Shown piece after piece: positions 3,879 through 38,954 of a stretch of 64,000 nt of DNA (position 1 is the first letter of the stretch; each line of letters opens with the position of its first letter). Origin of the DNA: a virus (lineage: Duplodnaviria; Heunggongvirae; Uroviricota; Caudoviricetes); IMG/VR virus record IMGVR_UViG_3300029305_004380, positions 2,042-66,041 of that record. The stretch is one strand, 5' to 3'. The position numbers were made by a program, and so were the translations under genes. Under the pieces are notes generated by a model. It was not told the origin of the DNA, searched no databases, and worked only from the letters and a program-made list of their open reading frames with translations.

Positions 3879-3942
3879 TGTTTACTCCAATCATTATAAT
3901 ATCTAGACTATCTTCTTCTATATATTATAATTAAATATCGCT

Positions 3943-4380
3943 TTAAATATTATTTATTTCTTTTGCGACTAATTTGTATTTAAAATTATCATTTTTATAT
4001 AATAACTGAATTGTTTGTAAAGCTTCATCATAACTCATCAGTTTTGCCTTTTCTTTATCTCTGGTCCAAATAACTTCATTGCAATCATTTAAATTAACAT
4101 TTTGAAATATAGATTGTATATTAAACAAATATAAAATTTCATCTGTATTAGCAGTATTCACTACGCAATATGATTTACCTTCTTTTTCTTCTATTGGTTC
4201 ATCATTTATATTATTTTTCAATATTAGTTGTTTTATGTTATTCAATATATTTAATGTTTTATTGAGTGACTCTAATTCAGTTTGAGCAACATTAGGTTTA
4301 ACCATTGCTCTTTCAATAGATATGTTTATCTTTTTTAATTGTTTATTTATATAATTAAGTTCTTCATTAAAATTTATCAT
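3943..4380 (-). CDS. hypothetical protein (145 aa)
   Basis: ORF track. Confidence 0.5.
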   Translation of the reverse strand: MINFNEELNYINKQLKKINISIERAMVKPNVAQTELESLNKTLNILNNIKQLILKNNINDEPIEEKEGKSYCVVNTANTDEILYLFNIQSIFQNVNLNDCNEVIWTRDKEKAKLMSYDEALQTIQLLYKNDNFKYKLVAKEINNI

Positions 4381-8861: not shown

Positions 8862-8910
8862 AATTGCTCCTCATTTAATGAATTATTTATAATAGTTATT
8901 TACAGTTATA

Positions 8911-8939
8911 ATTATAACATAAATTTTTATAAATGTAAA
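8911..8939 (-). promoter_or_regulatory. sigma-A-type promoter P4 (-35 TTTACA, 17 bp spacer, extended -10 TGTTATAAT)
   Basis: Read on the minus strand: TTTACA at 8939-8934, a 17 bp spacer ending TGT, and TATAAT at 8916-8911. It lies inside a 140 bp AT-rich intergenic region about 45 nt upstream of the start of gene 8861. Confidence 0.6.
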
Positions 8940-9020
8940 TAGATTTTTTATAATTAAATAAAAAATTGTTATAATTATATAAAAATACAAATTATATTTA
9001 TATAATTATAACAATAATAT

Positions 9021-9251
9021 TTAAATATGTTCTATAGAAGAATTATCTTTAAAAAAATCAACCAATATATTTCTTACATATAAATCTTTTTTGTAATATG
9101 AATCATATCCTTTTTCTTTAGCCTTTTTATTTTTATGTACATAATATTCATTCCATACTTTATCTAACGCTTCTTTTTTAGAATTTGCTTTTACTATATA
9201 TTTATCATTATCACCACAAGGAACTATACATTCTACCAAATAAATACTCAC
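9021..9251 (-). CDS. hypothetical protein (76 aa)
   Basis: ORF track. Confidence 0.45.
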   Translation of the reverse strand: MSIYLVECIVPCGDNDKYIVKANSKKEALDKVWNEYYVHKNKKAKEKGYDSYYKKDLYVRNILVDFFKDNSSIEHI

Positions 9252-9266
9252 TCATATTCACTCCTA

Positions 9267-9488
9267 ACTAATCTATAAAATAAACAGTTTTACCTTTTTC
9301 ATATGCTAATGCTATATTTTTAACTAGTGTTTCAGCTTCTTTAGATGAATTAAATGAACCTATAATGGCTCTATTTGAATTATAGTCACTAAATGCTCTA
9401 ACATCTACATGATTTTCATTTTCCTCAATTGTAATAGAAAATTATCATAATTTATGTCTTTTCCATATTTTAAACTTATTACTCTCAT
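9267..9488 (-). pseudogene. small gene interrupted by an apparent -1 frameshift (27-codon start frame, then about 50 codons in the -1 frame)
   Basis: The ATG at 9488 overlaps the stop of gene 9488..9976 (TAATG). That frame stops after MRVISLKYGKDINYDNFLLQLRKMKIM. The -1 frame then continues with no start codon as ...ENENHVDVRAFSDYNSNRAIIGSFNSSKEAETLVKNIALAYEKGKTVYFID to a stop at 9267. Protein-like sequence persists across the break. Confidence 0.3.
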
Positions 9489-9976
9489 TATAAATCTCCT
9501 TTATCACTTATGTAATTGTCCCATATCATTTGTAGATAATCATAATAATCATATTGCATTGCCCATTCTACATCAGATTCTTTATTCCATGAAAATGCTT
9601 TTTTATTTGCAAATAACGCAAGAAATTTATTAAAATACTCTTTTTGACTTAAATTACCATTTATAGGTTCTCCATTAGGAAATAACGTTTTACATACAGG
9701 AACTATAGTTGCAAAATATGTATGAATATCTTTTATATCCATTTCTCTCTGAAACATTAACATCCAAGCAGCTTGATTTAAGTCTTGAATATTCTTACTT
9801 GTAATCTTAATAATATTAGATACTATATCATTAATATAAAGTGATAAATTTTGAGCATTTTCAAGTGAATTAGCAGAATATTTACTGATCATCGTTTTCA
9901 TTATAAATTCTGCATTTTTATCATTAAGTAAATCATTAATTTTTTGTTCATTTTCATCAGATATATATTTATTCAT
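9488..9976 (-). CDS. hypothetical protein (162 aa)
   Basis: ORF track. Confidence 0.5.
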   Translation of the reverse strand: MNKYISDENEQKINDLLNDKNAEFIMKTMISKYSANSLENAQNLSLYINDIVSNIIKITSKNIQDLNQAAWMLMFQREMDIKDIHTYFATIVPVCKTLFPNGEPINGNLSQKEYFNKFLALFANKKAFSWNKESDVEWAMQYDYYDYLQMIWDNYISDKGDL

Positions 9977-9977
9977 A

Positions 9978-10289
9978 TTAATATCCTCCTAATAAATCTC
10001 TTGTTACTTTTCCAGTTAATAAGTCACAAACTGTATTCATATTATGAGTTTTACTTACTAATTCTTTTATATCTTCAGAAGATAAATTAGTTAACTTATT
10101 TAATTCTTCTATAGCTTTATTAGCATGTTCCAATTTAGTTTTAAGTATTTCATTTTCTTTAATAAGTGAATATTTTTCATCCAACAATTCATCTCTACTT
10201 TTTGTTAATGTTTTGATAGTTTTATTTTTAGAATCTATAATTCCTTGAAAATGTTTTTCAGCGGCTGAAAATTTCTTTCCTTTTGACAT
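9978..10289 (-). CDS. coiled-coil protein (103 aa)
   Basis: ORF track; heptad-like K/E/L-rich sequence. Confidence 0.5.
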   Translation of the reverse strand: MSKGKKFSAAEKHFQGIIDSKNKTIKTLTKSRDELLDEKYSLIKENEILKTKLEHANKAIEELNKLTNLSSEDIKELVSKTHNMNTVCDLLTGKVTRDLLGGY

Positions 10290-10294
10290 TTTAC

Positions 10295-10552
10295 TTACAC
10301 CTCTTCCAACACTAAACGTTTAAAATTATTATTTAAAAAACTAACAACTACATTATCCTCGTGAAAATCTGTATATATTTCATCTCTTGTCACGTGTTCA
10401 AGTATTGCGTCGGTAACTATAATACGTCCATACTCTTCTTTTGTTATAAACCTTTTTATTCTAAAAAGTCTTAGATAACTAAATCTATTTTCAGGATTTA
10501 TCCCAATTATAATATCATCACGTTTAAAATTACAATTATAAAATTCATTCAT
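10295..10552 (-). CDS. hypothetical protein (85 aa)
   Basis: ORF track. Confidence 0.5.
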   Translation of the reverse strand: MNEFYNCNFKRDDIIIGINPENRFSYLRLFRIKRFITKEEYGRIIVTDAILEHVTRDEIYTDFHEDNVVVSFLNNNFKRLVLEEV

Positions 10553-10563
10553 TTAAATTCACC

Positions 10564-10938
10564 TCAAAATTGATATTCAGATGCACACTTGTTACAAACC
10601 TTTACTACTTCATTTTCTGAATCTACCGGTTCACCGCAACATTCACATATATTTCCATTAAATCTTTTAGATGGTCTTGTAATAGTTTTCTGTGAAAAAG
10701 TTGCTACTGGTTCTTCAATAGGAACTTCATGATAATCAATTCCTAATATTGTTTCTTCTTCATTTAGCTCTAATTCTCTATCAATAGGAGCTAAACGAAG
10801 TGAATATTTTAACTGATTTTTAGGGTGTCCATTAGTATGTGTAGCAATAGACGTAATATTAGCATCTCCGTGCATATACAAATAATTTCCAATAATTTGA
10901 TGTAATTCTGATAATTTTACTACTCTTTTAGTTTTCAT
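10564..10938 (-). CDS. protein with C-terminal zinc ribbon (124 aa)
   Basis: ORF track; CECCGEP...CNKC motif. Confidence 0.5.
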   Translation of the reverse strand: MKTKRVVKLSELHQIIGNYLYMHGDANITSIATHTNGHPKNQLKYSLRLAPIDRELELNEEETILGIDYHEVPIEEPVATFSQKTITRPSKRFNGNICECCGEPVDSENEVVKVCNKCASEYQF

Positions 10939-11161
10939 TGTATCATCTCCTTTTAATCAATATTGTCAAGTGCATCGATTAATCTTTCATACGACAATGA
11001 TCTTTCAACTCCAAAAACTTCTACGTCATCATCACTTCTTTTTCCACTACTTAATTTTTCAATTGATTCATTTAGCATCGATATTATATTTTTTGCATCT
11101 TCTATTGATAGTGTTATATTTTTCATATTTAGTATCTCCTTTACAACTATAATCTATTACA

Positions 11162-11190
11162 ATTATAACACATTCTTTTATAATTGTAAA
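11162..11190 (-). promoter_or_regulatory. sigma-A-type promoter P1 inside a conserved approximately 70 bp cassette
   Basis: Read on the minus strand: TTTACA at 11190-11185, a 17 bp spacer ending TGT, and TATAAT at 11167-11162. The cassette (about 11150-11225) also carries the upstream direct repeat TTACAATTATAA. Confidence 0.6.
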
Positions 11191-11271
11191 CCGTTTTTTT
11201 ATAATTGTAATTAAACTGTAATATTATTTATCTATTAGCTTTTCAATATTTTTATTATTTGACATAATTAC

Positions 11272-12525
11272 TCACTCCGATGACTTAAAATTATATACAG
11301 GCTTAATAAGCTTTATAATCTCTACTGTATCTTCAATATTATTTACAATATCATTAATATTCTTATATGCTTGAGGAGATTCATCGAGAGTACCTTCATT
11401 AATACATGTAGAATAAATACCTGTCATAGATTCTGCAAAATCAGAAAGACTAATAGTTTCTTTAGCTTTACCTCTACTCATTAATCTACCAGCACCATGA
11501 GGAGCTGAATTATTGTAATCCTCGTTTCCTTTACCTTTACAAATAAGAACTCCATCTCTCATATTAATAGGAATAACTAACATTTGTCCTTCATAAGCAG
11601 CGACCGCACCTTTTCTAATTATGTTATCATCTCCAATATAATTATGAATCGTATCAAACCATTCGGTCTTAATATTATATTTCCCTTTTTGTTTAATTCT
11701 TAACTTTCCACTAGTAGATAATTGAACTTGACAATCATTGAAATAATTCTTTATAAGTTCTTCAGCGATTGTAAATCTATTCAGTGCAGCGTATTTCTGA
11801 CAAATTCTCATATCATGTAAATATTTATCTTTATCTTCACCAATAAGATAAAGTAAATTTTTAGGAATCTTATCTAACTTTGACTTATAATTATTTATGG
11901 CTTCTTGAATATCAGATTCCCTTCCAGATGCTTTCATTTCTGCTATTAAGGAATTTATATTATTCTTATCTTCTTCCTTTCCAGCTTTATTTTGATAATA
12001 CTTACATACGTCTAATCCTAAATGTCTAGAACCAGTATGAATCATAAGATATTTGTTTCCTTCAAAATCTTCATCAATTTCACAAAAATGATTCCCCGAA
12101 CCAAGCGAGCCGATAGCTCTTAATACTTTATCATATTGATGTTTTACCACATCTTTATAACAATACATATTTTCAAGTTCGTCAAATTTCTTTTTCTGTT
12201 TTGAATTAACTTCAAATCCGAAAGCAACATTTTCACGAAGTATTTTATCAAATCTCTTATAATCTATATCAACATTTCCTAATGGAATTGTTAGTACACC
12301 ACAACCAATATCGACTCCAACTAAATTAGGAACTACTTTATCTCCTAAATTAGCTGTAAATCCTATAACACATCCTGCTCCAGCGTGACAATCAGGTTGA
12401 ATTCTTATTTTACAACCTTCAACAAAAGGCTGATTTAATAATTGTATTATCTGACATATACACTCATCTTCTATAACATCTGTAAATACTTTAGCAGTAC
12501 CATATTTTCCTTTAAGTTCTAACAT
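11272..12525 (-). CDS. rtcB: RtcB-family RNA 3'-phosphate/5'-OH ligase (417 aa after start trimming)
   Basis: RtcB signatures QPDCHAGAGCVIG, VGVDIGCGV and GSGNHFCEID. The start is reassigned to the ATG at 12525 (MLELKGK...), which has a GGAGG ribosome-binding site and overlaps the stop of the upstream gene. The ORF-track N-terminus at 12570 is a read-through artefact. Confidence 0.85.
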   Translation of the reverse strand: MLELKGKYGTAKVFTDVIEDECICQIIQLLNQPFVEGCKIRIQPDCHAGAGCVIGFTANLGDKVVPNLVGVDIGCGVLTIPLGNVDIDYKRFDKILRENVAFGFEVNSKQKKKFDELENMYCYKDVVKHQYDKVLRAIGSLGSGNHFCEIDEDFEGNKYLMIHTGSRHLGLDVCKYYQNKAGKEEDKNNINSLIAEMKASGRESDIQEAINNYKSKLDKIPKNLLYLIGEDKDKYLHDMRICQKYAALNRFTIAEELIKNYFNDCQVQLSTSGKLRIKQKGKYNIKTEWFDTIHNYIGDDNIIRKGAVAAYEGQMLVIPINMRDGVLICKGKGNEDYNNSAPHGAGRLMSRGKAKETISLSDFAESMTGIYSTCINEGTLDESPQAYKNINDIVNNIEDTVEIIKLIKPVYNFKSSE

Positions 12526-12526
12526 T

Positions 12527-12838
12527 TTATTCCTCCACTTTTGTAGGTTTATAAAGAGTAGCATCTTCAAGTTCTTCTAAATCGTAAATAATGCTATTAA
12601 GTTTATCTATTACAAGTTCATTAACTTTAAATCCATTTTTATCAATAATACGTTTATCATAACTTATATGATGAATAGCTTCATCTATTCGGCTATATGC
12701 TTCTTTTATTAACCCTTTATATTTTTTATTTTCATTTTCATCTCTTGGAGTTATTTCATAAGCTTTCATAATGTTAATCCTCTCTATAATAAATTCTATA
12801 ATTTTTAAATATAACTCTATTAATAAGTTTAGTCCCAA
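12527..12838 (-). CDS. hypothetical protein (103 aa)
   Basis: ORF track; its stop abuts the rtcB start. Confidence 0.5.
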   Translation of the reverse strand: MGLNLLIELYLKIIEFIIERINIMKAYEITPRDENENKKYKGLIKEAYSRIDEAIHHISYDKRIIDKNGFKVNELVIDKLNSIIYDLEELEDATLYKPTKVEE

Positions 12839-13530
12839 TATGCGTTAATATTTTCATAATCAGGATAATTTTCTTTCATATAAGCGTCTAACTTTACTCT
12901 TAAAGCATCTTTTATCTTATTATCACTGTCATAATCACCTACAGGTGGTATACACTCTGTACTAAAAATAACTATTTCACCATCTTTTACAATTCCTTGA
13001 TAATCTGAATTTTTCCACACTTCATAATCAGAACTTTCATCTGCAACACGAGTCACAATAGTTTGATATCTTGTATTAAAGTTGATAAATGCATCTCTAT
13101 CATAAAATGCAGCTTTATAAAAGAAATCTGCTCTCTTTTTTCCCTTATTGTCAAATAAATTATTCCACATTGAATGGTCCGTTGCTTCAATTTTCCAACC
13201 TTCAGGAAGTACTACATTATAAAATAAATCGTCGCACTCATCAACAATAACAATTCCCATTTTCTCATATTGTTGTCTTGTGTATTTAATGTTATTTTGC
13301 ATAATAATCTTGTGTCTTTCTTCCCATTCCATTGAATCCTCTACACCGTTCCATCTTACCTCATTTGGCAGACAAACGTCATTTAACTTCTTTGGTAGTC
13401 TTTGATTTCTTACAACTGATTGTTGACCTCTTCTTTCCTGATTTTCAATAGCTTTAGAAGGATTTTCACCTTCCATTGCATATAGTATTGCATCCATAAA
13501 AGTAATCATATTATCATTATTCATTTTCAT
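12829..13530 (-). CDS. hypothetical protein (233 aa)
   Basis: ORF track. Confidence 0.5.
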   Translation of the reverse strand: MKMNNDNMITFMDAILYAMEGENPSKAIENQERRGQQSVVRNQRLPKKLNDVCLPNEVRWNGVEDSMEWEERHKIIMQNNIKYTRQQYEKMGIVIVDECDDLFYNVVLPEGWKIEATDHSMWNNLFDNKGKKRADFFYKAAFYDRDAFINFNTRYQTIVTRVADESSDYEVWKNSDYQGIVKDGEIVIFSTECIPPVGDYDSDNKIKDALRVKLDAYMKENYPDYENINAYWD

Positions 13531-13536
13531 TCTCCT

Positions 13537-13821
13537 TTAATTAAAATTAGGTTCGTATTTGACAGCTTTTTGTTCTTTAGTATATTCTACTTTACCACAT
13601 TTCTTACAAGTTCTACTCCATCTATCCACTTTCTTTTCAGTATGACCAACTAATTCAGGATAATAATCTGATCCTTGGAATCTTGTCTCATATCTTGGTT
13701 CTTTTACTATTTCCGGGTCAAACTTTACTTTATCCCATTCATGACAACAATTAGATTGTTCTCTATGTAGTTCTCTTAATTCTCTTTCATATCTAGCTCT
13801 TATTTCTTCTTCTCTTGTCAT
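13537..13821 (-). CDS. zinc-ribbon protein (about 94 aa, start trimmed to the second ATG)
   Basis: CCHEW...CKKCGK motif. A GGAGG ribosome-binding site lies 8 nt upstream of the ATG at 13821. The upstream 18 nt of the ORF-track call is the ribosome-binding region. Confidence 0.5.
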   Translation of the reverse strand: MTREEEIRARYERELRELHREQSNCCHEWDKVKFDPEIVKEPRYETRFQGSDYYPELVGHTEKKVDRWSRTCKKCGKVEYTKEQKAVKYEPNFN

Positions 13822-13835
13822 AATTAAACCTCCAA

Positions 13836-13955
13836 TCATATATATTTACATTTTCTAAAGTTTTGACATTTTCGACATCTAACCCAGTATAAATATTCTT
13901 TACCTTTGGTTATTTTACTTAATTCTTTACAAGATTTATTCATCATATCTTTCAT
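13836..13955 (-). CDS. 39 aa Cys-rich miniprotein (MKDMMNKSCKELSKITKGKEYLYWVRCRKCQNFRKCKYI)
   Basis: Manual translation; the start follows a tandem TAA TAA stop of the upstream small gene. The stop TGA lies in the ribosome-binding-site region of the next gene. Confidence 0.3.
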   Translation of the reverse strand: MKDMMNKSCKELSKITKGKEYLYWVRCRKCQNFRKCKYI

Positions 13956-13959
13956 ATTA

Positions 13960-14127
13960 TTATTCATCAAATTCATCAAATTCATTCACTTCTTCTTTTA
14001 ATTCTTCTAAACAATTTCTACATAATGGAATTCTAATACCATTTACTATCAAAACACCTTTAGTGGTGTTTCCACATATATCGTAGTTTTCATCAAAGTA
14101 ATCTTTTACTTCTAATTTAATAGACAT
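13960..14127 (-). CDS. 55 aa zinc-ribbon miniprotein with acidic FDEFDE tail
   Basis: Manual translation gives MSIKLEVKDYFDENYDICGNTTKGVLIVNGIRIPLCRNCLEEL... A GGAGG ribosome-binding site lies 8 nt upstream. The ATG follows the stop of gene 14131..14349. Confidence 0.35.
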   Translation of the reverse strand: MSIKLEVKDYFDENYDICGNTTKGVLIVNGIRIPLCRNCLEELKEEVNEFDEFDE

Positions 14128-14130
14128 GAT

Positions 14131-14349
14131 TTATTCCTCCAATTCATAATTATGTACTCTACTATAATCTATATTTTCACCCAACCATGACAACATTGTA
14201 GAAGTTAATTCTCCATCAATATATAGATTTACTATCCCGCTATGAATACTTCCATCACTAGCAATTGCAACTTTTTCAAAATTAAATATTTCAAACGTTC
14301 GTCCATCTTTTAAATAACCTTTTGAATTTACGTTTATAATTACCGTCAT
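14131..14349 (-). CDS. hypothetical protein (72 aa)
   Basis: ORF track. Confidence 0.45.
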   Translation of the reverse strand: MTVIINVNSKGYLKDGRTFEIFNFEKVAIASDGSIHSGIVNLYIDGELTSTMLSWLGENIDYSRVHNYELEE

Positions 14350-14412
14350 ATGATACTCCTTATTTGAATAACTGCTTTCTAAGATTTTTATTATTTAAAT
14401 ATTTTTCTTATA

Positions 14413-14688
14413 TTAATAAAATTCTTTTTCAAGACGAATATTATTTTCTTTTACTAATAAACTGAGTTTTTCTTTTTCACAAACCAATTTATTATATTTA
14501 TCTTCAAACATCTTATATTTTTCACAAGTTTTATCGTACGAATTAAAACATTTTATTGCATCGCCTGCCCATTCAATATCTTCATTAATCTTTTTAATCT
14601 GATTTAAAAGTCTCTCTTGACTTCTAATTAATTTTTCAAATTCTTCAAATGAACCATTCTTCCATTTTAACATTTGTTCTAAAGTCAT
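14413..14688 (-). CDS. hypothetical protein (91 aa after trimming; first gene behind P2)
   Basis: Start moved to MTLEQMLKWKNG at 14688, which has an AAGGAGG ribosome-binding site. The upstream 50 codons of the ORF-track call run through promoter P2 and a terminator hairpin. Confidence 0.5.
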   Translation of the reverse strand: MTLEQMLKWKNGSFEEFEKLIRSQERLLNQIKKINEDIEWAGDAIKCFNSYDKTCEKYKMFEDKYNKLVCEKEKLSLLVKENNIRLEKEFY

Positions 14689-14719
14689 TTTATTAACCTC
14701 CTTTATATTTTCTAATATA

Positions 14720-14748
14720 ATTATAACATAAAAATTTATAATTGTAAA
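14720..14748 (-). promoter_or_regulatory. sigma-A-type promoter P2 inside the conserved cassette
   Basis: Read on the minus strand: TTTACA at 14748-14743, a 17 bp spacer ending TGT, and TATAAT at 14725-14720. The start of gene 14688 lies about 30 nt downstream. Confidence 0.65.
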
Positions 14749-14784
14749 CCCTTTTCTTATAATTGTAATAAAACTGTAAAAATA

Positions 14785-14815
14785 AAAGGAGTCTCTTATG
14801 AGACTCCTTTTTATA
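14785..14815 (-). terminator. intrinsic terminator hairpin (GGAGTCTC / GAGACTCC) with flanking A and T runs
   Basis: An 8-10 bp GC-containing stem and a 6 nt loop. A-run on one side and T-run on the other, so it is bidirectional. It is immediately upstream (in transcription order) of the P2 cassette. Confidence 0.6.
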
Positions 14816-15137: not shown

Positions 15138-15659
15138 TCATAATTGAGGTAACATTTCCAATAATTCTTCAATCTTATTTTTAGTATTATCAGATAATAT
15201 CATTTTATCTTTATTATTATCATACCAATGCTTTGCAGTACTTTTAGGATTATTATATTTAAATGATGACCAATCACATAACATTTCTATAATACAATTT
15301 AAAGGCATATCTAATATTTTTTGTTCACCTGAATCTTTTTGTAAAATCCAATATTGCCAATGATGATCATTACATTTTTGATGATGGTTCCAAGCTTCAT
15401 CATATAATGCTTCATTATCGGCACCTGCTTTAGATGGATAAAAATGATGCAAATATGGATAAAATTCTACATCATCATACTTAGATGCATCATGATTATT
15501 TATTTTATGTTCTAATTCATGCTCATTAAAATCAAACATTGTTAAAAGATCATCTTTTATAGATTCATAAGATTTCTTAACGCCATCTATATGATTTTCT
15601 AAATATTTATAATATTCTTCAGATCTATCAGATACTCTTTCAGTTAATATTTTCAACAT
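15138..15659 (-). CDS. HD-like metal-dependent hydrolase family protein, paralogue A (173 aa)
   Basis: Shares the motifs HD-x-SK, LHH, HHW(Q/E)YW and (L/I)CDW with 18677..19219. Confidence 0.5.
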   Translation of the reverse strand: MLKILTERVSDRSEEYYKYLENHIDGVKKSYESIKDDLLTMFDFNEHELEHKINNHDASKYDDVEFYPYLHHFYPSKAGADNEALYDEAWNHHQKCNDHHWQYWILQKDSGEQKILDMPLNCIIEMLCDWSSFKYNNPKSTAKHWYDNNKDKMILSDNTKNKIEELLEMLPQL

Positions 15660-17097: not shown

Positions 17098-18258
17098 TTA
17101 AATTAATTTATCTACATGTTGAAATTCATCTAATGTAAATTCATAAACTTTATTTTGAGTATGATTTTGAAATACAACATCTTTATCACTTATTATATTA
17201 TAATCGTTTGTAAATGTGTTCATTATTTCTTTAGAAATCCATTCTATAAATTTAACCGGAACACCTTGAGCTAAACATTGAATTGTAGGAATTTTACATT
17301 CATTAGGATAAAATATAAAATCATCCGGATAGCCCATTATTCTAGCATATTCTCTTATATATAAATCTCTATTTTCTACAGGATGAATAAATTGAGCTAA
17401 ACTAGTCATTGAAGGAGCCACTCCGTCAAAATCAAGTCTATATGAAGATTTATCCCATAATCTTTCTCCATTATTTTTCTTTTCAATAAAAGATTTTACT
17501 TGTTTTTTATGTTCATTCGGAATTTTTTCAATGTCTAGATTATTTAAATTGTTGTATAATCCACACATTAAAGATTCATTATGTTTTACATATCTATAAA
17601 ATTCTTCCATATTTTTAATAGCTCTGTTATTATCAAATTCCATATTGGGTGTGTCAGGAGTTAAACCTTCAAATATTTCTTTTATTGTTGTTTTATTTTG
17701 TTTAACAAATTTTATTTCAGGTATTTTTTCATATTTATTTTTATTCCAACCTACAATCATAGTTCTTAATCTTCTCATACTTACACCATGATTTCCAGCC
17801 ATATCTCGTATGATTGTAAATTTATACTTTTCACCTAATATATTCACCATATCTTTTAAAATAGGTAATCCTAAAGTCACGACTGTTGGTGCATTTTCTA
17901 TTAAAAATGTATCAGGATTTAAATGATTTATAATATCAAATACTTCATAAAATCTATTATTTACTTTATTATCTACTTTTGCATTTTTATTTATAGAACT
18001 TAATCCAGAGCATGGATTATTTGAATATAATAAGTTATAATGTTTTTCTTTTAAAGTGTCTAAGAATGCATTTTGAGACCACTCTGATGGTCTCTTAATA
18101 TTTATATTAGGATAATTCTTACAAAAATGATACGCATTAGTATCTGTCATATCTTCAGTCATTTCTAAAACAGTATCTATTTTCCATCCTGTATTTAAAT
18201 GTCCTATGGTCTGACTCCCAGAAAATATATATGCACCTATAGCTGATAATTCATTCAT
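17098..18258 (-). CDS. divergent C5-cytosine methyltransferase-fold protein (386 aa)
   Basis: C5-MTase motif order is recognisable: motif I-like IFSGSQTIG (glycines replaced), motif II LEMTED, motif IV NPCSGLS (PCQ becomes PCS), motif VI FLIENAPTV (ENV), motif VIII RRLRTMIVGW and C-terminal motif X-like QGVPVKFI. Confidence 0.7.
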   Translation of the reverse strand: MNELSAIGAYIFSGSQTIGHLNTGWKIDTVLEMTEDMTDTNAYHFCKNYPNINIKRPSEWSQNAFLDTLKEKHYNLLYSNNPCSGLSSINKNAKVDNKVNNRFYEVFDIINHLNPDTFLIENAPTVVTLGLPILKDMVNILGEKYKFTIIRDMAGNHGVSMRRLRTMIVGWNKNKYEKIPEIKFVKQNKTTIKEIFEGLTPDTPNMEFDNNRAIKNMEEFYRYVKHNESLMCGLYNNLNNLDIEKIPNEHKKQVKSFIEKKNNGERLWDKSSYRLDFDGVAPSMTSLAQFIHPVENRDLYIREYARIMGYPDDFIFYPNECKIPTIQCLAQGVPVKFIEWISKEIMNTFTNDYNIISDKDVVFQNHTQNKVYEFTLDEFQHVDKLI

Positions 18259-18676: not shown

Positions 18677-19219
18677 TCATTTTTCATATGTTTTTTCATA
18701 TTTTTTAATAATATCTTTTAACTTAAATCTACCAGAGCTATAATCATGTAATACATTAAATAAAAATGTATAAGTATCTAAATGTATTTTTATTTTACCA
18801 CTATTGTATAATCTATTAAAAGTTTTAAAAGGAATATCACAGGTCCAATTATCTTTATTATATGCTTTTCCAGCTCCTATCCAATCACATATCATTTCTT
18901 TAACATATTTAATTGGCATTTTTAATGCTTCTCCACCTGAAGAAAGATTATCAATCCAATATTCCCAATGATGTGGATTTCTTCCTCTATGATGTAACCA
19001 TGCGTATGAATATCCTTTTTCATCTTTTTCATTATCAATTGGACTTCTATCACCTGTATAATATTTAGCAGAATTAAAAAATTCAGAAAAACTAAATTTA
19101 GACCAATCATGCATAAATCCTCTAAAAGGAATTCCAGCTTCAACAGATGCTAAAAACACATAATATTTATGTCTGTTTATTATAGCAAAATGTTTTAATA
19201 ATTTTTTATAATATTTCAT
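18677..19219 (-). CDS. HD-like metal-dependent hydrolase family protein, paralogue B (180 aa)
   Basis: H-x25-HD-x-SK, WLHH, HHWEYW and ICDW motifs shared with 15138..15659. Confidence 0.5.
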   Translation of the reverse strand: MKYYKKLLKHFAIINRHKYYVFLASVEAGIPFRGFMHDWSKFSFSEFFNSAKYYTGDRSPIDNEKDEKGYSYAWLHHRGRNPHHWEYWIDNLSSGGEALKMPIKYVKEMICDWIGAGKAYNKDNWTCDIPFKTFNRLYNSGKIKIHLDTYTFLFNVLHDYSSGRFKLKDIIKKYEKTYEK

Positions 19220-19731: not shown

Positions 19732-19814
19732 AATTTATTTCTCCTTTATATTAAATTTTTATAAATAAACTTCCTATTATTTATAATAGTACACGTATTA
19801 AAATATTATTTTTA

Positions 19815-23179: not shown

Positions 23180-24181
23180 TTACTTATTGAATTTAATAGC
23201 ATTTTCATTAAATAAAGTATTATCACATTCCACAAAATAGTCAAATAGTGGTAACGCTAACTCTCTCATTTGAGGATGAGCAGCTTTGTCACATCTTAAT
23301 TCAAAGAAATGTCCCCATTCATAATTATGAGCAGTCATTATAATTTCAGTTTTTAAACTGTTACCAAGTACACTTCTAGCTTCTTGAGGAGTAGCTCCTA
23401 ATTCTAATAACTCAAAGTATGCTTTTTCTGAAGCTTTTATTGCATCTCTCCAAACATGATACTTGTTTCTTTCAACACTTTGAAGTTCTGCTTCACCATC
23501 AAACATTAATGGGTCAATCACCGTGATATTATTATCAAATTTATCTTTAGAATAATTACAATATCTTGTAGATTCTTGAGCATATGAAGAATCCCTATGT
23601 CTAACGATTTCATGTGATACACCTCTATCACAAATAAATTTAATAGATTTCCATCCGTGCATCCATTGTTCTTCTGGAATTAATGTATTAATATCATCGA
23701 TTTTAGTCCAATTATTTCTATGTACTTTTTTAAATTTATTACCAAATAATTCATCACAATCATAATCTAAGACTATTTGCTCACATAATTCAATTAAATG
23801 TTCTTTCATATAACTATTAGTCTTATAAGCTTCTAATAAATCTAAAAGAGACCTTGCGCTAAACGACAATATATATCTTAATTTTGTTTCAAAATTACCT
23901 TCATCATTACATGAAATAATTTCTGTCGTACTAGATGTTATATATTTTTCATTACTTAATATTTTAAAAAATAAATTATTAGGAGTATTACATTGATATA
24001 CAAATATAAAATGTTCTAACATCGCCCAATGTTTTTTATCATATAAATTTTTAATCATTTTTTTATGACTTTCATCAGTTATTAAATCTTCTGATTTATA
24101 ACAAATTCTTGCAATTTTTTCAATATGTTTTTGAGGATTGTCATCATACATTTCTTTAAATGACGGCTTTATAATTTTCAT
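23180..24181 (-). CDS. thyX: flavin-dependent thymidylate synthase ThyX (333 aa)
   Basis: ThyX signature RHRDSSYAQESTRY (RHR-x6-QESTRY). A GGAG ribosome-binding site is present. Confidence 0.85.
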   Translation of the reverse strand: MKIIKPSFKEMYDDNPQKHIEKIARICYKSEDLITDESHKKMIKNLYDKKHWAMLEHFIFVYQCNTPNNLFFKILSNEKYITSSTTEIISCNDEGNFETKLRYILSFSARSLLDLLEAYKTNSYMKEHLIELCEQIVLDYDCDELFGNKFKKVHRNNWTKIDDINTLIPEEQWMHGWKSIKFICDRGVSHEIVRHRDSSYAQESTRYCNYSKDKFDNNITVIDPLMFDGEAELQSVERNKYHVWRDAIKASEKAYFELLELGATPQEARSVLGNSLKTEIIMTAHNYEWGHFFELRCDKAAHPQMRELALPLFDYFVECDNTLFNENAIKFNK

Positions 24182-24900: not shown

Positions 24901-24963
24901 TTCTTTTTATCCTTTTTATTTCTTTTCTTATATAATATAATAGACTAAATTATAAAAAATTAT

Positions 24964-25332
24964 TTAATGATAACCATATTCACTATCTATTTTTAAATCA
25001 GAAGATATACATTCATTATCATATAATTTATTTAAAGAGTTTATTTGTTCCTTAGTTATTTTTTTAGGATTAATATATGTGTTATACCAAACTGAAATAC
25101 ATCCTGTCATATTGACGAGTTCTAACATTACATCACACCAAATATCTAAAATATCAAATAATACTTCTCTTTCATAACATGTAAGATTAATTAATTTTTC
25201 TTGATGACTTGGAATTGCATATGATATATCTCCATCAGGATGAATTAATACTTCACAATAGTTTATATAATTTTCATTGTGATACTTTATAAATTCATCT
25301 ATTTTCATTTTATCAGTTCTCATAATAATCAT
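24964..25332 (-). CDS. hypothetical protein (122 aa)
   Basis: ORF track. Confidence 0.5.
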   Translation of the reverse strand: MIIMRTDKMKIDEFIKYHNENYINYCEVLIHPDGDISYAIPSHQEKLINLTCYEREVLFDILDIWCDVMLELVNMTGCISVWYNTYINPKKITKEQINSLNKLYDNECISSDLKIDSEYGYH

Positions 25333-26238: not shown

Positions 26239-26267
26239 ATTATAACATATTTTCTTACATTTGTAAA
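26239..26267 (-). promoter_or_regulatory. sigma-A-type promoter P3 inside the conserved cassette
   Basis: Read on the minus strand: TTTACA at 26267-26262, a 17 bp spacer ending TGT, and TATAAT at 26244-26239. Confidence 0.65.
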
Positions 26268-26295
26268 CCCTTTTCTTATAATTGTAATAAAACTG

Positions 26296-26332
26296 TAAAA
26301 AAGGATTAGACGTTTAATCTAATCCTTTTAAA
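26296..26332 (-). terminator. intrinsic terminator (AGGATTAGA / TCTAATCCT)
   Basis: A 9 bp stem and 7 nt loop with A and T runs. It lies at the stop of gene 26333..26971 and directly upstream of P3. Confidence 0.6.
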
Positions 26333-26971: not shown

Positions 26972-27026
26972 AATTTATTTCTCCTTTTCTTTATTAACTA
27001 TAATTGCAAACTTAAACATTTATTAT

Positions 27027-27224
27027 TTATAAATTATCAATTTTATTTAAATTAAATGTTTTACCTCTTGGTCCTTTTTTGTATACAATGCATTTATCAT
27101 CTGCATCACAAGGTCTCATATGTCCTGTGAACAATATATATTCACATGTCCATGGAAACATAGATGATGCTCTATATATACAAGTATTGCATTTACATTT
27201 TTTATACTTATTCATATGCATCAA
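27027..27224 (-). CDS. small Cys-rich protein (65 aa)
   Basis: ORF track; CKCNTC...C...C...C pattern. Confidence 0.4.
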   Translation of the reverse strand: MMHMNKYKKCKCNTCIYRASSMFPWTCEYILFTGHMRPCDADDKCIVYKKGPRGKTFNLNKIDNL

Positions 27225-30064: not shown

Positions 30065-30093
30065 ATTATATCAAATATAAATATAAATGTAAA
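30065..30093 (-). promoter_or_regulatory. sigma-A-type promoter P7 (TTTACA, 17 bp spacer, TGATATAAT)
   Basis: Read on the minus strand: TTTACA at 30093-30088, a 17 bp spacer, TGA then TATAAT at 30070-30065. It lies directly downstream of terminator 30130-30178. Confidence 0.55.
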
Positions 30094-30129: not shown

Positions 30130-30178
30130 TTAACAAAAATCAAGAGTTGAATTGTAAAATGTATTCAACTCTTGATAT
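30130..30178 (-). terminator. intrinsic terminator, 14 bp stem (ATCAAGAGTTGAAT / ATTCAACTCTTGAT)
   Basis: Perfect 14 bp inverted repeat and 10 nt loop, with a T-run in the minus-strand sense. Confidence 0.6.
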
Positions 30179-31208: not shown

Positions 31209-32786
31209 TTATTCATCAATATTATCTTCAAGATATGGATTTACTACTTCAGGAAGAGATTCCTTTTCATCATTATTAATAACTGTATTATTTTCAGATG
31301 TACTTAATACACCTAAACCTTTAAGAGGTTCTGCAACTGCTTTAACGGCCTCTGAAACTGAATCATTAAATGATTTACCATTAAGAGCATTATTAGAAAC
31401 ATCTAAATGTTTCATAAGAGTAGGAATTTGTGCAAGAGTATCAAATAATACATTGTTGCCCATACCTGTTCCTGAACCACCAATGTTTACAAATTCTGCA
31501 TTCTTTCCAACTTCAGCCATTACAGTAGCCATATTTGTTGCAATCTGTACTCTTGCTTCATTTTCAATCTTAATTTTTTCAATTTCAAAATTAACCTTAC
31601 CATTTCCTGCTCTTGCTTCAGCTAATGCTTTTTCACCTTCAGCTTCGGCAAGTTTTTTCGCTTTAATTGCTTCAGCTTCTGCAATACCTTGTTTAGTAGT
31701 AATTTCAGCTTGAGTTTCACCTTCAAGTTTTATTTTATTTGCATTAGCTTGAGCTTCTCTTTCAATTGCATTTGCTTTACCAATAGCTTCTTGCTCTAAT
31801 ACTTTAGCTCTTGCTTCTGCATTAATAGTGGAAACGTTTGCTGTTTCTTGAGCTTTAATTTCCGCTTGAACTTTTTCAGCTTCAGCTCTAGTTTTAATAA
31901 CTTCCTTTTCTTTAATTGCGGCTAGATTAGCTTGTTCTTGTCTGACAACTTCAACTTTACCTTCTTGTGCAGCAACTTCTTGCATACGAATAGTTTTCTG
32001 AAGTTCACCTGCAATTGCAGCGTCTGCATTGGCTTTATCTGTTTCCGCTTTGAATTCGGCAATTTTTAAATTATTATTTTTAGTTTTTTCAGCAATTTCA
32101 AGTTCTGTATCAAGTTCACTTTGTTTAGCTATTTTTTCTGATTCTGCATTTTGTTGTCTGATTTGCTGATCAGCCATAGCTCTTACTTGTTCAGCTTCTT
32201 TTCTCTTTTCTTCTCTATCTTTAGCAGCAATATCTTCATAATAACCATTGTTATCTGTAACTTCACCTATATTAAGTGAGATTAATTTAAGACCCATATC
32301 TTTAAGTTCATCTGCAACAGCTTCTTGCACCGTTTGTTTAAACTGTTCTTTTTTAGTAGCTACTTCTTCTGGAGTCATAGTTGCAACAGTGCCAAGTACA
32401 CATCCAGCCAATGTTCTTTTAACATCTTCTTTAATACCATCACTTTTACGTTCTTTAAAAGATACTATTGCTTTAGCAAGAACTTCAGTATCAGATGAAT
32501 CAGGTCTAATTTGAGCAGTCCAATTAATAACGATAGGTACACCTGTCTTTGTCATAATTTCATCTTTATCAGCTGTAACAGTTAACATACATAAATCGAA
32601 TGTATCTGCTCTTCTAAAAATAGGAATTACAAGTCCACCTCCAGAAACTTTATAGATAGGCTCTTTTCCGCCTGTTATTATTAATACTTTATCTACAGGC
32701 ACTGTTTTATATATTTTACAAAGTAAAATAATAAAAGCCACAATAAATAAAATTATTACCCCACCGATTATTAAATATTTTTCCAT
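31209..32786 (-). CDS. flotillin-like SPFH/band-7 protein, FloT-like (525 aa)
   Basis: N-terminal TM helix, an SPFH domain (VPVDKVLIITGG...IPIFRRADTFDL...) and a long Ala/Glu-rich coiled-coil flotillin domain. An AAGGAG ribosome-binding site is present. Local GC is visibly higher than the surrounding sequence. Confidence 0.8.
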   Translation of the reverse strand: MEKYLIIGGVIILFIVAFIILLCKIYKTVPVDKVLIITGGKEPIYKVSGGGLVIPIFRRADTFDLCMLTVTADKDEIMTKTGVPIVINWTAQIRPDSSDTEVLAKAIVSFKERKSDGIKEDVKRTLAGCVLGTVATMTPEEVATKKEQFKQTVQEAVADELKDMGLKLISLNIGEVTDNNGYYEDIAAKDREEKRKEAEQVRAMADQQIRQQNAESEKIAKQSELDTELEIAEKTKNNNLKIAEFKAETDKANADAAIAGELQKTIRMQEVAAQEGKVEVVRQEQANLAAIKEKEVIKTRAEAEKVQAEIKAQETANVSTINAEARAKVLEQEAIGKANAIEREAQANANKIKLEGETQAEITTKQGIAEAEAIKAKKLAEAEGEKALAEARAGNGKVNFEIEKIKIENEARVQIATNMATVMAEVGKNAEFVNIGGSGTGMGNNVLFDTLAQIPTLMKHLDVSNNALNGKSFNDSVSEAVKAVAEPLKGLGVLSTSENNTVINNDEKESLPEVVNPYLEDNIDE

Positions 32787-34056: not shown

Positions 34057-34512
34057 TTATAAACTTATGTTATTTGAAATAGCATTGCCTATGATAGTTA
34101 ATGATTCAGGTGTCTTAACAAATGAATCAGTCATTAAATAATAATTAGAATTAAAATCTTGTAACACAAGCCCGTCCATATATACTGTAAATCCATCAAA
34201 TTCAATTGGTCCTTTATAATATTTTACTATAAATTCACTCACTGAATCATCAAAATTCACACTTAATATATCATTACTGAATATAGGAGATTTATTTTTA
34301 TCAACTAATGATGTAATTTTACAAATATCATTTTCACTAACTGATATTTTATCATTTTCGGTTGTTAAATAATATAATATACTTTCATCGTCTATTATTT
34401 TTTCATAATCTCCATATACCCATTCATTGTTAATATATGCTTTACAAGTAATATTCATATTTTTTACTCCTCCATTAAACTTTATATATAATATAATTGT
34501 TTTTAAACGCAT
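34057..34512 (-). CDS. hypothetical protein (151 aa)
   Basis: ORF track. Confidence 0.5.
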   Translation of the reverse strand: MRLKTIILYIKFNGGVKNMNITCKAYINNEWVYGDYEKIIDDESILYYLTTENDKISVSENDICKITSLVDKNKSPIFSNDILSVNFDDSVSEFIVKYYKGPIEFDGFTVYMDGLVLQDFNSNYYLMTDSFVKTPESLTIIGNAISNNISL

Positions 34513-34527
34513 ATATTATTTAAAAAC

Positions 34528-34567
34528 AAAAAATAAACCTCATTTTATATGAGGTTTATTTTTTTGG
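34528..34567 (-). terminator. intrinsic terminator (AAACCTCAT / ATGAGGTTT) with A7 and T7 flanks
   Basis: A 9 bp stem and 5 nt loop. It is bidirectional and sits between the tRNA region and gene 34512. Confidence 0.6.
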
Positions 34568-34803
34568 ATAAATTGTAAGTGGATAACAGTTAGAGTCTTC
34601 AAGGTTTTAAGCCTTGAGCTATTGAGCATTAGCCGTATTTTTAACAAAGACTCATGTATAATGAATATTATGTGAAAGAATAAGTATAGCAAAGTAAAAA
34701 CCATAACTTATTTTAATACAAAAAATGGTTGTATGTTAAAACCACACAATGTTTATTTAGAAAGGAATGCAAAATAATGTATTTAAATCACATAATATTC
34801 ATT

Positions 34804-34930
34804 TGGTCGGAATTAAGAGATTCGAACTCTTCTTAATAAATTAATTGTCAAATACAAAATTTTTAAAGGGGAAGTTTCATTTAGTATATTTTAATTTATT
34901 AAGTGTATAACCACTTTATACCTAATTCCG
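34804..34930 (-). ncRNA. aberrant tRNA-like element: intact acceptor stem, D-arm and T-arm with CCA, but a 13 bp helix plus 46 nt loop where the anticodon arm should be
   Basis: Minus-strand read: CGGAATT-AG-GTAT-AAAGTGGTT-ATAC-A-[CTTAATAAATTAA ...46 nt... TTAATTTATTAAG]-AAGAG-TTCGAAT-CTCTT-AATTCCG-A-CCA. The 7 bp acceptor is perfectly paired and the T-loop is canonical. No 5+7+5 anticodon arm can be drawn. Confidence 0.4.
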
Positions 34931-35097
34931 AAATACCGTGTTTTATAAATGTTAAGTACTATGCATTCATATTTTTATTTAAAGTATAAAAACATACACG
35001 GTGATGAAAAACTCCATTTTTTAAAGTAAAAAATATGTAAAACTCAGTTTATTCTATACTTGTAAAAGATTTTCTTTGCGCAACCCGAAAACAGGTT

Positions 35098-35186
35098 TGG
35101 TGCAAGAGAAGGGATTCGAACCCTCAATTCCTCACGGACGACGGATTTTAAGTCCGTTGCATATACCAAAATTCTGCCACTCTTGC
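35098..35186 (-). tRNA. tRNA-Leu (anticodon UAA), type II with long variable arm, CCA encoded
   Basis: Manual cloverleaf. Acceptor GCAAGAG/CTCTTGC, 3 bp D-stem, anticodon stem ACGGA/TCCGT, loop CT-TAA-AA, 15 nt variable arm, T-arm GAGGG-TTCGAAT-CCCTT, discriminator A, CCA. Length 89 nt. Confidence 0.85.
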
Positions 35187-35359
35187 ATGTAAATCATAAG
35201 AATCACCCACTAATTATTAAATAATAACCACTACATTTATATTTAATAATTGCCCACTATCTTACATTAAATCTCTAAAGATTCTACCCGTATGCTTTAT
35301 TAATTAAAAAAGTTGAACAGAAAAAATGAAACAAAGCTATTCATATTACTATGAATATT

Positions 35360-35433
35360 TGGCTGGGGTAAATGGAATCGAACCAATACTCTAAGAATCA
35401 AAATCTTATGTACTACCGTTATACTATACCCCA
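35360..35433 (-). tRNA. tRNA-Gln (anticodon UUG), CCA encoded
   Basis: Manual cloverleaf. Acceptor TGGGGTA/TACCCCA, D-stem GTAT/GTAC, anticodon stem TAAGA/TCTTA, loop TT-TTG-AT, T-loop TTCGATT, discriminator G, CCA. Length 74 nt. Confidence 0.8.
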
Positions 35434-35662
35434 ATATATTAAATATTAAAGGTTGAAAATATATTAAATAATTAAGAAAAGAGGATTTACCAGGAACTCA
35501 ATTCTGGTAAAAAGGTAAATGTTATACTTTCGGAAAATTATTCGAAATGAATATTTTCAACCTTTAATAATTTAAACTAAGTTTAATTTATTCCATCTTA
35601 TATTTATTATAATAGTTTAACTCTAAAGTTATTATTTATTTTTATGATTTTTTTACGATTTT

Positions 35663-36192: not shown

Positions 36193-36735
36193 TTATTTAC
36201 CTGAATTTCCAAATCCAGTATCTCCTCGATTGGTATTCATAATTTCTTCTTTTGTCAAACCAGTTTCTTTCATATAATCTTCTAGAGATACCCATTCAAT
36301 GCTGTAAGTTTTATAAATATCTAAACTGCACGGTCTTTCTCCTTTTTCAATGGTAATATCTTTGTCTGTCACATTGTACAAAAGAGCATTGATACAACCA
36401 CGATAATTCAAATCTACATGCGCAGGTCCCACTAATAAACCTTCAAGCCATCTACCACCTCTTGTTCTACATGCAATACCAAAACCTTCAGGAATAATAG
36501 TTCCAATACCAAGTGATACTTTAGCTGAACCATGAGCTGGAATCGTTACTGTTTCATGAGCATATGCATCATATCCAATATCACCTTCTTTATTTCTCTT
36601 AGGAAGCATTAATTCACCATCTCCTGAAAAATCAAGATATGGTACCTGTATTGTATTTTCAGTACAATTCATTGTTTCCATCATATGTTCCAATGTTGTT
36701 ATCCTATTTTCTAATTGTGCTAATACTTTATTCAT
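36193..36735 (-). CDS. dUTPase-family (trimeric dUTPase/dCTP-deaminase fold) enzyme with N-terminal coiled-coil extension (180 aa)
   Basis: dUTPase motifs: IGYDAYA (motif 1), RTRGG (motif 2-like) and GPAHVDLNYRG (motif 3, D...YRG). Confidence 0.65.
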   Translation of the reverse strand: MNKVLAQLENRITTLEHMMETMNCTENTIQVPYLDFSGDGELMLPKRNKEGDIGYDAYAHETVTIPAHGSAKVSLGIGTIIPEGFGIACRTRGGRWLEGLLVGPAHVDLNYRGCINALLYNVTDKDITIEKGERPCSLDIYKTYSIEWVSLEDYMKETGLTKEEIMNTNRGDTGFGNSGK

Positions 36736-36854
36736 ATTATGTACTCTCCTTTGTTTTTTCTTATTTATTATAATATGTTATCAGATTAAATATTATTTAA
36801 AAGATAATAATTTATATTATGTTTTAATTTAAATGTCTTAGAATGCATTCTGAA

Positions 36855-38874: not shown

Positions 38875-38954
38875 TAAACACTCATTCCTTCATTAATTAT
38901 AAACTATAATACACAATAAATATAATTGTATTTACGTAATGTTATTATTTCTAT

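Follow-up and report, generated by a model that had tools for sequence, protein, structure and literature searches.

Seven short, closely similar sites lie between the genes of IMGVR_UViG_3300029305_004380, a metagenomic phage record of which a 64-kb stretch (the window; ~25% GC, all genes on the minus strand and behind ribosome-binding sites of the GGAG type) is analysed here; the question they raise is whether they are promoters for the host's own RNA polymerase and whether the sequence upstream of some of them is bound by a regulator of the host as well. An initial annotation had described seven promoters built of TTTACA, a 17-bp spacer and TGnTATAAT, and the same seven are recovered by exact pattern, repeat finder and weight matrix, although the copy it placed at 57282–57310 belongs one base further on, at 57283–57311. 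The pattern TTTACA-N14-TGN-TATAAT has seven exact matches in the window, all on the minus strand, against 0.02 expected, a count reached in none of 100 shuffles; the repeat finder, given no motif, returns the same seven copies as its largest family (D1); and a weight matrix made from the seven scores its members at 31–44 bits and the best other site in the window at 18 bits, a gap that marks the family as discrete. Generic sigma-70-like matches, by comparison, are about as numerous as in shuffles at 25% GC (179 against 182, 170 against 178 and 197 against 185), and the signal thus resides in the specific set of seven, designated here P1–P3 and, by coordinate, 8939, 30093, 56388 and 57311 (Table 1).

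Promoters for the primary sigma factor have a −35 hexamer near TTGACA, a spacer of 17 ± 1 bp and the −10 hexamer TATAAT. Each of the seven sites carries TTTACA at −35 (five of six positions in agreement with TTGACA), a 17-bp spacer, the full −10 hexamer (six of six) and the TGn of the extended −10 type; TRTG, reportedly the Gram-positive −16 motif of Voskuil and Chambliss (1998), is present in six, the 30093 promoter having TTTG. All seven are intergenic and co-oriented with the genes, with a GGAG-type ribosome-binding site and ATG 31–52 nt downstream. We consider them very probably to be host sigma-A promoters of the extended −10 type and likely to belong to the early class, since the motif is the host consensus, is common to bacterial chromosomal promoters (see below) and stands in one case ahead of a sigma-like gene; they probably start separate gene blocks of a large virulent phage with a low-GC, Firmicute-like host. 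The idea, already put forward in the initial annotation, that they define transcription units of host sigma-A is partly supported overall, by their anatomy, their place at the heads of gene blocks, the sigma-like gene and their recurrence in a related phage. The orientation proposed there also holds, and is not random: all seven sites, as well as 14 copies in the relative, are on the gene strand. Its description of the family as near-identical is apt for the 29-nt core only, pairwise identity over 81 nt being 53–79%, and a long conserved cassette of ~70 bp does exist, but is confined to P1–P3.

Large virulent phages such as SPO1, T5 and T4 typically have early promoters of the host type that are close to consensus, and in SPO1 one such promoter expresses gp28, a sigma-like factor, thereby setting off a cascade. 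The Kayvirus tgl early promoter is a further example of the host type (PMC7150955). Our seven sites resemble these sets in heading gene blocks with near-consensus sequences, one of them ahead of a phage sigma-like gene; they are unlike them in that the −35 is always TTTACA, never TTGACA, and in the phased DTTACA boxes found upstream.

The sigma-like gene lies directly behind the 57311 promoter, and its product matches Sigma70_r2 above the gathering cut-off (29.8 versus 24 bits), which bears out the suggestion that one of the promoters precedes a phage sigma-factor gene. The window also holds a second bipartite motif, AAATAAT-N17-ATTATAWTAWAT, with 7 exact copies and 15 copies when up to two mismatches are allowed (1.44 expected), 14 of the 15 running with the genes. 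All seven exact copies, and most of the sites checked overall, are intergenic and just upstream of a ribosome-binding site, and one precedes a tRNA cluster. This motif probably marks promoters dependent on the phage sigma factor, a candidate middle or late class, and supports a two-stage reading. An apparent eighth member of the first family at 43211–43262 (repeat family D2) has no −35/−10 match and belongs to this second class. Divergent plus-strand promoters returned by the scans are mirror images of TTACAATTATAA repeats, with no plus-strand genes to serve; the best-scoring site outside the family (8947–8975, plus strand; TTTATA-17-TGTTATAAT, 18 bits) is likewise divergent from the 8939 promoter and followed by no plus-strand gene.

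What lies upstream of the core becomes apparent by comparison with a relative, a metagenomic phage from IMG sample 3300000114 spread over several contigs, which shares gene order with the window at 39–72% protein identity (about 55%) and contributes 14 further unique core promoters. Alignment of the resulting 21 promoters reveals a module, (A/G/T)TTACA-N5-(A/G/T)TTACA-N5-AAGAAA-N4-TTTACA, that runs from upstream through the −35 hexamer. DTWACA begins at −21 and at −32 from the −35 start in 15 of the 21 promoters each, every other upstream offset giving fewer than three; the boxes are found in 3 of 7 promoters in the window (P1–P3) and in 12 of 14 in the relative. The 5-nt linkers between boxes (gtttt, ttgtt, aattg, gattt and others) are free to vary whilst the boxes stay constant, a position-specific conservation that goes beyond recent copying. 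The upstream direct repeat that had been ascribed to P1–P3, TTACAATTATAA, is exact in P1 and P2, the proximal copy in P3 reading TTACAAATGTAA. A palindrome, TTATAATTATAA, proposed earlier as a shared operator, did not survive comparison: it occurs exactly only at 8906–8917 and 56355–56366, both copies consist of the −10 hexamer plus a downstream TATAA, and it is absent from the features conserved in the relative. The notion of a shared regulator nevertheless remains plausible, by way of the DTTACA direct repeat, with a host factor the more probable ligand than a small phage protein.

The sigma-gene promoter has no boxes in either phage, which suggests a gene-specific distinction. In the window, at 56330–57444, a terminator and the 56388 promoter come straight after the sigma gene, unlike in the relative, where two extra ORFs (open reading frames; 360 and 120 aa) stand between that gene and the next promoter, a boxed one (loci L008 and L086). 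The sequence of the window would also permit a tandem promoter made of the proximal ATTACA, a 17-bp spacer and TACAAT lying over the −35, a minor idea only; in the relative the would-be −10 is just TACATT and lacks the TG, and no −10 is paired with the distal box. A 226-kb contig of 25% GC (JAEIGA010000013.1, locus L096) carries a cassette of the same family, ATTACA-N5-ATTACA-aatgaAGAAAAacta-TTTACA, and, from the 1 kb of it that was compared, may be a more complete relative of the window phage. Among deposited phages, megablast with the 8-kb region of the window that holds the promoters from 8939 to 14748 (P2) returned no match, and sensitive BLAST with the P2 cassette returned chance AT-rich matches only; tblastn with the 1036-aa ORF found no match, and the exact 38-nt pattern of P2 and P3 has none in IMG/VR.

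The same architecture exists outside this phage lineage. We scanned one genome per bacterial species for the upstream half alone, TTACA-N6-TTACA-N5-AARAAA-N4-TTTACA, and obtained 17 matches, 16 of them in metagenome-assembled genomes (MAGs) of Clostridia (Oscillospiraceae, Ruminococcaceae and others; 44–53% GC). Wherever the sequence is long enough these 16 are one orthologous promoter, with TATAAT at a 17–18-bp spacing, mostly preceded by TGn, and placed 81–120 nt upstream of a gene for a secreted D-Ala-D-Ala carboxypeptidase of ~480–520 aa (Peptidase_S11; hereafter the dac promoter). The 17th match, in a Flavobacterium, is probably a chance one, no −10 hexamer being recognisable there. A second scan, of viral and metagenomic collections, used the full geometry and allowed TTGACA or TTTACA at −35; its 69 unique sequences fall into 27 independent families that share essentially only the specified positions. 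The base before TTACA, which the pattern did not impose, agrees with the TGTWAH consensus discussed below in 53 of 54 boxes from these families, being A, G or T, and is C in the remaining one. On the bacterial-type contigs the downstream genes encode ~1000-aa secreted proteins with S-layer homology (SLH) domains (five loci), a MurA-like enzyme and a GT2+GtrA glycosyltransferase (by Pfam at locus L045, L059 having a near-identical N-terminus), and one promoter of the same geometry precedes a DnaE-like protein with a PHP domain. A control with the box period set to 14 bp in place of 11 gave no match in the viral collection.

Two further arrays came to light in these collections. An unrelated phage of 157 kb and 31% GC (IMGVR_UViG_3300035520_001075; L123, 920–1013 and 4262–4326) has four to five phased TTTACA boxes with an 11-bp period upstream of TTGACA-17-TGgTATAAT, in a register 5 bp different from that of the window. 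Oscillospiraceae MAGs (L011, 1975–2035; L016, 1837–1864; L024, 4087–4114) contain five to six TGTAAC hexamers, again with an 11-bp period, ahead of a TACAAT −10 and a short ORF whose product would start with a signal-peptide-like sequence. Situated 1.6 kb from the dac promoter, the hexamers resemble an array of response-regulator sites that is oppositely oriented.

Which regulator might bind such a pair of boxes? The WalR/VicR (YycF) consensus is TGTWAH-N5-TGTWAH (PMC9210968, PMC4168254), summarised also as TGTAA-n6-TGTAA and footprinted in four species (PMC3472324); according to these papers the sites are bound on either strand, and in WalR-activated genes the site is placed upstream of the −35 hexamer (PMC4168254). 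Searching both strands of the window for TGTWAH-N5-TGTWAH, we find only three exact matches, and these are the boxes of P1–P3, in the same register. Three matches against 1.8 expected is a count no higher than chance, so the evidence is carried by the positional coincidence at P1–P3. The boxes are like described WalR sites in having two hexamers, an 11-bp period and a position upstream of −35 as in activated genes, P1–P3 matching on the opposite strand; they are unlike them in that the predicted site sits in a probable early promoter of a phage and in a half-site common to other regulators of the OmpR family. With regard to the regulon, the bacterial promoters precede envelope genes plus the one DnaE-like gene, and Wal-ON conditions in C. 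difficile induce a D-Ala-D-Ala carboxypeptidase ~4-fold, whereas the genes downstream of the phage promoters have no assigned function (PHROGs gave none for the first genes behind them). WalR-type boxes in early promoters of phages are not described in the literature that was searched. We propose tentatively, at slightly less than even odds, that an OmpR-family response regulator of the host, WalR being the best match, binds the box pair as a dimer. The −35 hexamer TTTACA reads TGTAAA on the other strand and so agrees with the half-site, whereas TTGACA (TGTCAA) does not; as a speculation, this fit could explain why the lineage never uses TTGACA, but 19 of the 27 families do use it.

Other known sites were compared. 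The Pho box of B. subtilis PhoP consists of four TT[A/T/C]ACA hexamers with an 11-bp period on the coding strand between −20 and −60, taking the place of the −35. Orientation, period and the −35 TTTACA fit this arrangement; the upstream boxes, mostly ATTACA or GTTACA, misfit at their first base, and the third position is occupied by AAGAAA, not by a TTHACA hexamer. The 7-1-7 box of PerR/Fur-type regulators and the Spo0A box misfit in sequence. An upstream promoter (UP) element, the site of the C-terminal domain of the polymerase alpha subunit (alpha-CTD), has A/T tracts between −38 and −59 with the consensus AAAWWTWTTTTnnAAAAnnn. The phage promoters have a proximal-like AAGAAA(A) at about −45; the distal region, however, holds boxes instead of T-tracts, and the boxes differ from an UP element in having an invariant C, in reaching −67 and in persisting in GC-rich contexts. 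A precedent in concept is provided by cyanophage promoters with pho boxes under the control of host PhoBR, for which PhoB gel shifts are among the methods (PMC10976474): there as here a phage promoter has a direct-repeat site of the type used by a host OmpR-family regulator (predicted in our case), by which expression of phage genes follows, or here would follow, a sensory system of the host. The two cases differ in the regulator, its signal, the motif and the phylum of the host.

Five of the seven promoters (14748, 26267, 30093, 56388 and 57311) have a terminator hairpin with a T-tract upstream, 30–80 nt from the −35 and with folding energies of −14 to −18 kcal/mol (z = −5.5 to −7.1). The initial annotation had correctly placed P2, P3 and its P7 behind terminators; the count, though, is five rather than three. 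At P2 and P3 the T-tract of the terminator provides the TTT of the distal box TTTACA, so that terminator and box overlap (14764–14811 and 26283–26329), and the two promoters share an identical run of ~42 nt that leads from the T-tract into the −35, as would be consistent with copying or recombination. The window phage and its relative do not have all their cassettes in the same places (a cassette directly before the ligase gene, for example, is found only in the latter), and the cassettes flank blocks of small genes without assigned function. The pairing of terminator and promoter recalls the promoter early stem-loop elements (PeSLs) of T4-type phages, repeated ORFan-associated elements of ~100 bp that combine an AT-rich-upstream sigma-70-type promoter with a stem-loop (PMC2839356; PMC4122927). 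PeSLs mediate recombination, indels or mini-circles at the flanks of ORFans, and the observations that bear on such a role here are the ~42 nt common to P2 and P3 and the differing cassette positions. Both are repeated, intergenic, composite motifs of ~100 bp, with an early-type promoter and a stem-loop, near small ORFs without assigned function. Unlike in PeSLs, the hairpin here is always upstream, as a separate T-tract terminator that does not overlap the promoter boxes, and a regulator-type direct repeat is present, none being described for PeSLs; the two belong to different host types and phage lineages and are not homologous in sequence. Membership of the PeSL group implies a T4-like myovirus and homology to the PeSL sequences of such phages, and the nearest protein relatives of the window phage are instead SP-15-like and Herelleviridae-like phages of Firmicutes; we regard the terminator–promoter cassettes as an analogue of PeSLs, not a member.

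Taken together, our reading of the locus, to which we assign a probability of roughly 0.6, is that these are sigma-A, probably early, promoters of which a subset carries an upstream module for an OmpR-family regulator of the host. Host sigma-A polymerase would start separate units at the seven sites, intrinsic terminators insulating five of them from upstream transcription, and the sigma-like protein made from one early unit would probably redirect polymerase to the second promoter class. At P1–P3 and most promoters of the relative, an A-rich block (at about −45) and the direct repeat (centred at about −59) lie on the same face of the helix; the block, being UP-like, may contact alpha-CTD, and DTTACA-N5-DTTACA would be bound by a host OmpR-family dimer (WalR again the best match). 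Standing upstream of the −35, the regulator would help to recruit polymerase, and a subset of early genes would in this way follow the envelope or growth signalling of the host, whilst promoters without boxes, that of the sigma gene included, would fire regardless: an unconditional trigger of the cascade, with other early blocks modulated.

Several observations weigh against this reading. Four of the seven promoters in the window have no intact boxes, and the promoter of the 341-aa gene, with intact boxes in the relative, has degenerate ones in the window (56388), so that promoter function can do without the boxes. P2 and P3, given their ~42 shared bases, may be recent copies of one another. 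The TTACA half-site is used by many OmpR-family regulators (PhoP, OmpR, RpaB and SaeR), and the match therefore does not single out WalR; most of the MAG dac promoters, moreover, have CTTACA as their proximal box, in conflict with TGTWAH. Conservation of the boxes among the matches from the collections is by construction, TTACA having been fixed in the scans by design. With the box pair moved 5 bp further upstream, four phage promoters were still found, one of them in the 157-kb phage, and the register is thus preferred but not unique. Finally, the matching bacteria, at 44–61% GC against 25% for the phage, are not its hosts.

It could be that the sites are plain strong sigma-A promoters and that TTACA boxes and A-block together enhance their strength by a UP-like or curvature effect (through alpha-CTD or wrapping), with no dedicated factor. 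The A-block does occupy the position of the proximal UP subsite in an upstream region that is AT-rich throughout, and remains so in the four promoters without boxes; since SLH/S-layer-type genes, which share the architecture, and phage early genes are both typically expressed at very high levels, a generic strength element is an alternative that also counts against our reading. A fixed C in every box, together with C before TTACA in only 1 of 54, nonetheless points to base-specific rather than A-tract recognition; the boxes persist at 55–60% GC without A-tracts nearby; the motif equals the footprinted consensus of a regulator; and Rfam detected no rRNA or tRNA gene downstream at 10 loci without an ORF, nor was any of the downstream ORFs identified a ribosomal protein. 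We judge the enhancer explanation unlikely. Somewhat different is the view that the cassette is kept mainly as a substrate for recombination, a PeSL-like mobile unit shuffling ORFan modules. The identity of P2 and P3, the differing cassette positions in the two phages, the small flanking genes and the PeSL precedent all speak for it, whereas the free divergence of linkers around fixed boxes, and the 27 unrelated families (bacterial ones among them) that share boxes but not the remaining sequence, speak against. Such a role, which we hold to be on the unlikely side, would be compatible with promoter function.

A regulator encoded by the phage itself, either a repressor for early shut-off or an activator, might instead bind the DTTACA repeats, the −35 TTTACA included. 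All 21 promoters of the lineage have TTTACA, a hexamer that fits the box consensus, and none TTGACA; boxes are amplified in these phages; and there are many small early ORFs without assigned function. The same geometry, however, recurs at promoters on the chromosomes of phage-free bacteria, and Pfam detects no OmpR-type winged-helix domain in ~60 proteins scanned from the window, which covers 64 kb of the genome, the sole hint being a weak MarR match below cut-off; this explanation we consider improbable. Least credible, to the point of being a very long shot, is that the seven sites are read by the phage sigma-like protein as a middle or late class instead of by host sigma-A. Such a protein is indeed encoded in the window; but the motif is the canonical consensus of primary sigma factors and recurs at promoters of bacterial chromosomes, the sigma-like gene itself lies behind one of the sites, only region 2 is detected in its product, leaving no evident reader of a −35, and AAATAAT-N17-ATTATAWTAWAT is the better candidate for its target.

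Table 1. Positions in the window of promoters, associated elements and selected genes.
Feature	Position	Strand	Remarks
P1 core promoter	11162–11190	minus	TTTACA, 17-bp spacer, TGTGT, TATAAT; ATG of 57-aa ORF 35 nt downstream
P1 direct repeat ATTACA-N5-ATTACA	11206–11222	minus	plus strand TGTAAT-N5-TGTAAT, exact TGTWAH-N5-TGTWAH
P1 A-block AAAAAA	11195–11200	minus	10 bp upstream of −35, about −45; resembles proximal UP subsite
P2 core promoter	14720–14748	minus	ATG of 91-aa ORF 31 nt downstream
P2 direct repeat TTTACA-N5-ATTACA	14764–14780	minus	plus strand exact TGTWAH-N5-TGTWAH
P2 upstream intrinsic terminator	14784–14811	minus	12 pairs, −18.1 kcal/mol, then T run
P3 core promoter	26239–26267	minus	ATG of 57-aa ORF 49 nt downstream
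P3 direct repeat TTTACA-N5-ATTACA	26283–26299	minus	plus strand exact TGTWAH-N5-TGTWAH
P3 upstream terminator hairpin	26299–26329	minus	−14.1 kcal/mol, z = −6.7; T-tract enters distal box
30093 promoter (TTTACA-17-TTTGA-TATAAT)	30065–30093	minus	no intact boxes; ATG of 54-aa ORF 32 nt downstream, then 865-aa ORF
Terminator hairpin upstream of 30093 promoter	30139–30176	minus	−16.7 kcal/mol, z = −5.5
8939 promoter	8911–8939	minus	no boxes; A-block AAAAAA at −45; ATG of 99-aa ORF 49 nt downstream
56388 promoter	56360–56388	minus	boxes degenerate and shifted; heads block from 341-aa ORF to NAD ligase
Terminator hairpin between sigma-like gene and 56388 promoter	56471–56500	minus	
57311 promoter	57283–57311	minus	no boxes; directly upstream of sigma-like gene
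Terminator hairpin after 1036-aa ORF, upstream of 57311 promoter	57391–57421	minus	
Phage sigma-like gene	56514–57230	minus	238 aa; Pfam Sigma70_r2 29.8 bits, cut-off 24; region 4 not detected
AAATAAT-N17-ATTATAWTAWAT, exact copies	2066–2101, 3920–3955, 24930–24965, 34486–34521, 35602–35637, 36763–36798, 43174–43209	minus	
AAATAAT-N17-ATTATAWTAWAT, one or two mismatches	17193–17228, 19776–19811, 26993–27028, 38915–38950, 44732–44767, 46400–46435	minus	
Nucleotide-modification cluster: thymidylate-synthase homologue	49525–50451		
Nucleotide-modification cluster: dCMP deaminase	38152–38874		
Nucleotide-modification cluster: TET-associated-type glycosyltransferase (TAGT)	36855–38135		
Nucleotide-modification cluster: dUTPase	36193–36735		
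Nucleotide-modification cluster: ThyX	23180–24181		
Nucleotide-modification cluster: C5 cytosine methylase	17098–18258		

Beyond the promoters, the window encodes replication and repair functions (RtcB ligase, NAD-dependent DNA ligase, SbcC and an SbcD-like protein, helicase, primase, 5′–3′ exonuclease and RecA; a gp32-like match is weak and below the Pfam cut-off) as well as the nucleotide-metabolism genes of Table 1. The nearest relatives at the protein level, the SP-15-like and Herelleviridae-like phages, are ~25–35% identical, and no deposited phage is close in DNA. The modification genes, with an SP-15-like helicase, suggest a hypermodified, possibly glycosylated, DNA base. A stretch of 1.2 kb without an ORF (34459–35662) holds tRNA-Leu(taa) at 35098–35186 and tRNA-Gln(ttg) at 35360–35433, both on the minus strand and flanked by several hundred bases without an assigned feature. 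Other gene products of note are a 433-aa protein (41858–43159) with a PemK/MazF-like toxin domain in its N-terminal ~120 residues (Pfam, 72.8 bits) and ~300 residues without a match; two paralogous DUF5662 proteins encoded 3 kb apart (15138–15659 and 18677–19219; Pfam, 109 and 121 bits); and a 525-aa SPFH/Band 7 protein (31209–32786; Pfam, 81.8 bits) amid the early/replication region.

As first described, the promoter family was an ordinary one, because host-type early promoters and terminator–promoter cassettes are standard in large virulent phages; what is added here is a regulator-type direct repeat, fused to the promoters in a fixed register and common to promoters of Clostridia envelope genes. 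The seven sites and the second motif together make up a testable two-class promoter map of an otherwise unannotated phage. If a host regulator does bind, this would be the second documented use of a host two-component system by a phage, after cyanophage PhoB, the link being to cell-wall growth rather than nutrient status, and the motif would serve directly to reconstruct an envelope regulon of unculturable gut Firmicutes. More speculatively, and at odds we put nearer to one in three than to evens, a lineage of large gut-Firmicute phages may have placed many of its early promoters under the two-component envelope regulator of the host (WalR or a close OmpR-family relative) by means of a fixed module, DTTACA-N5-DTTACA at 21 bp upstream of the −35, the same module defining an undescribed envelope regulon of Clostridia. 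Were that so, early expression would report on active wall synthesis in the host, and the regulon, in uncultured Clostridia, would cover S-layer/SLH proteins, the D,D-carboxypeptidase, MurA and the GT2/GtrA protein.

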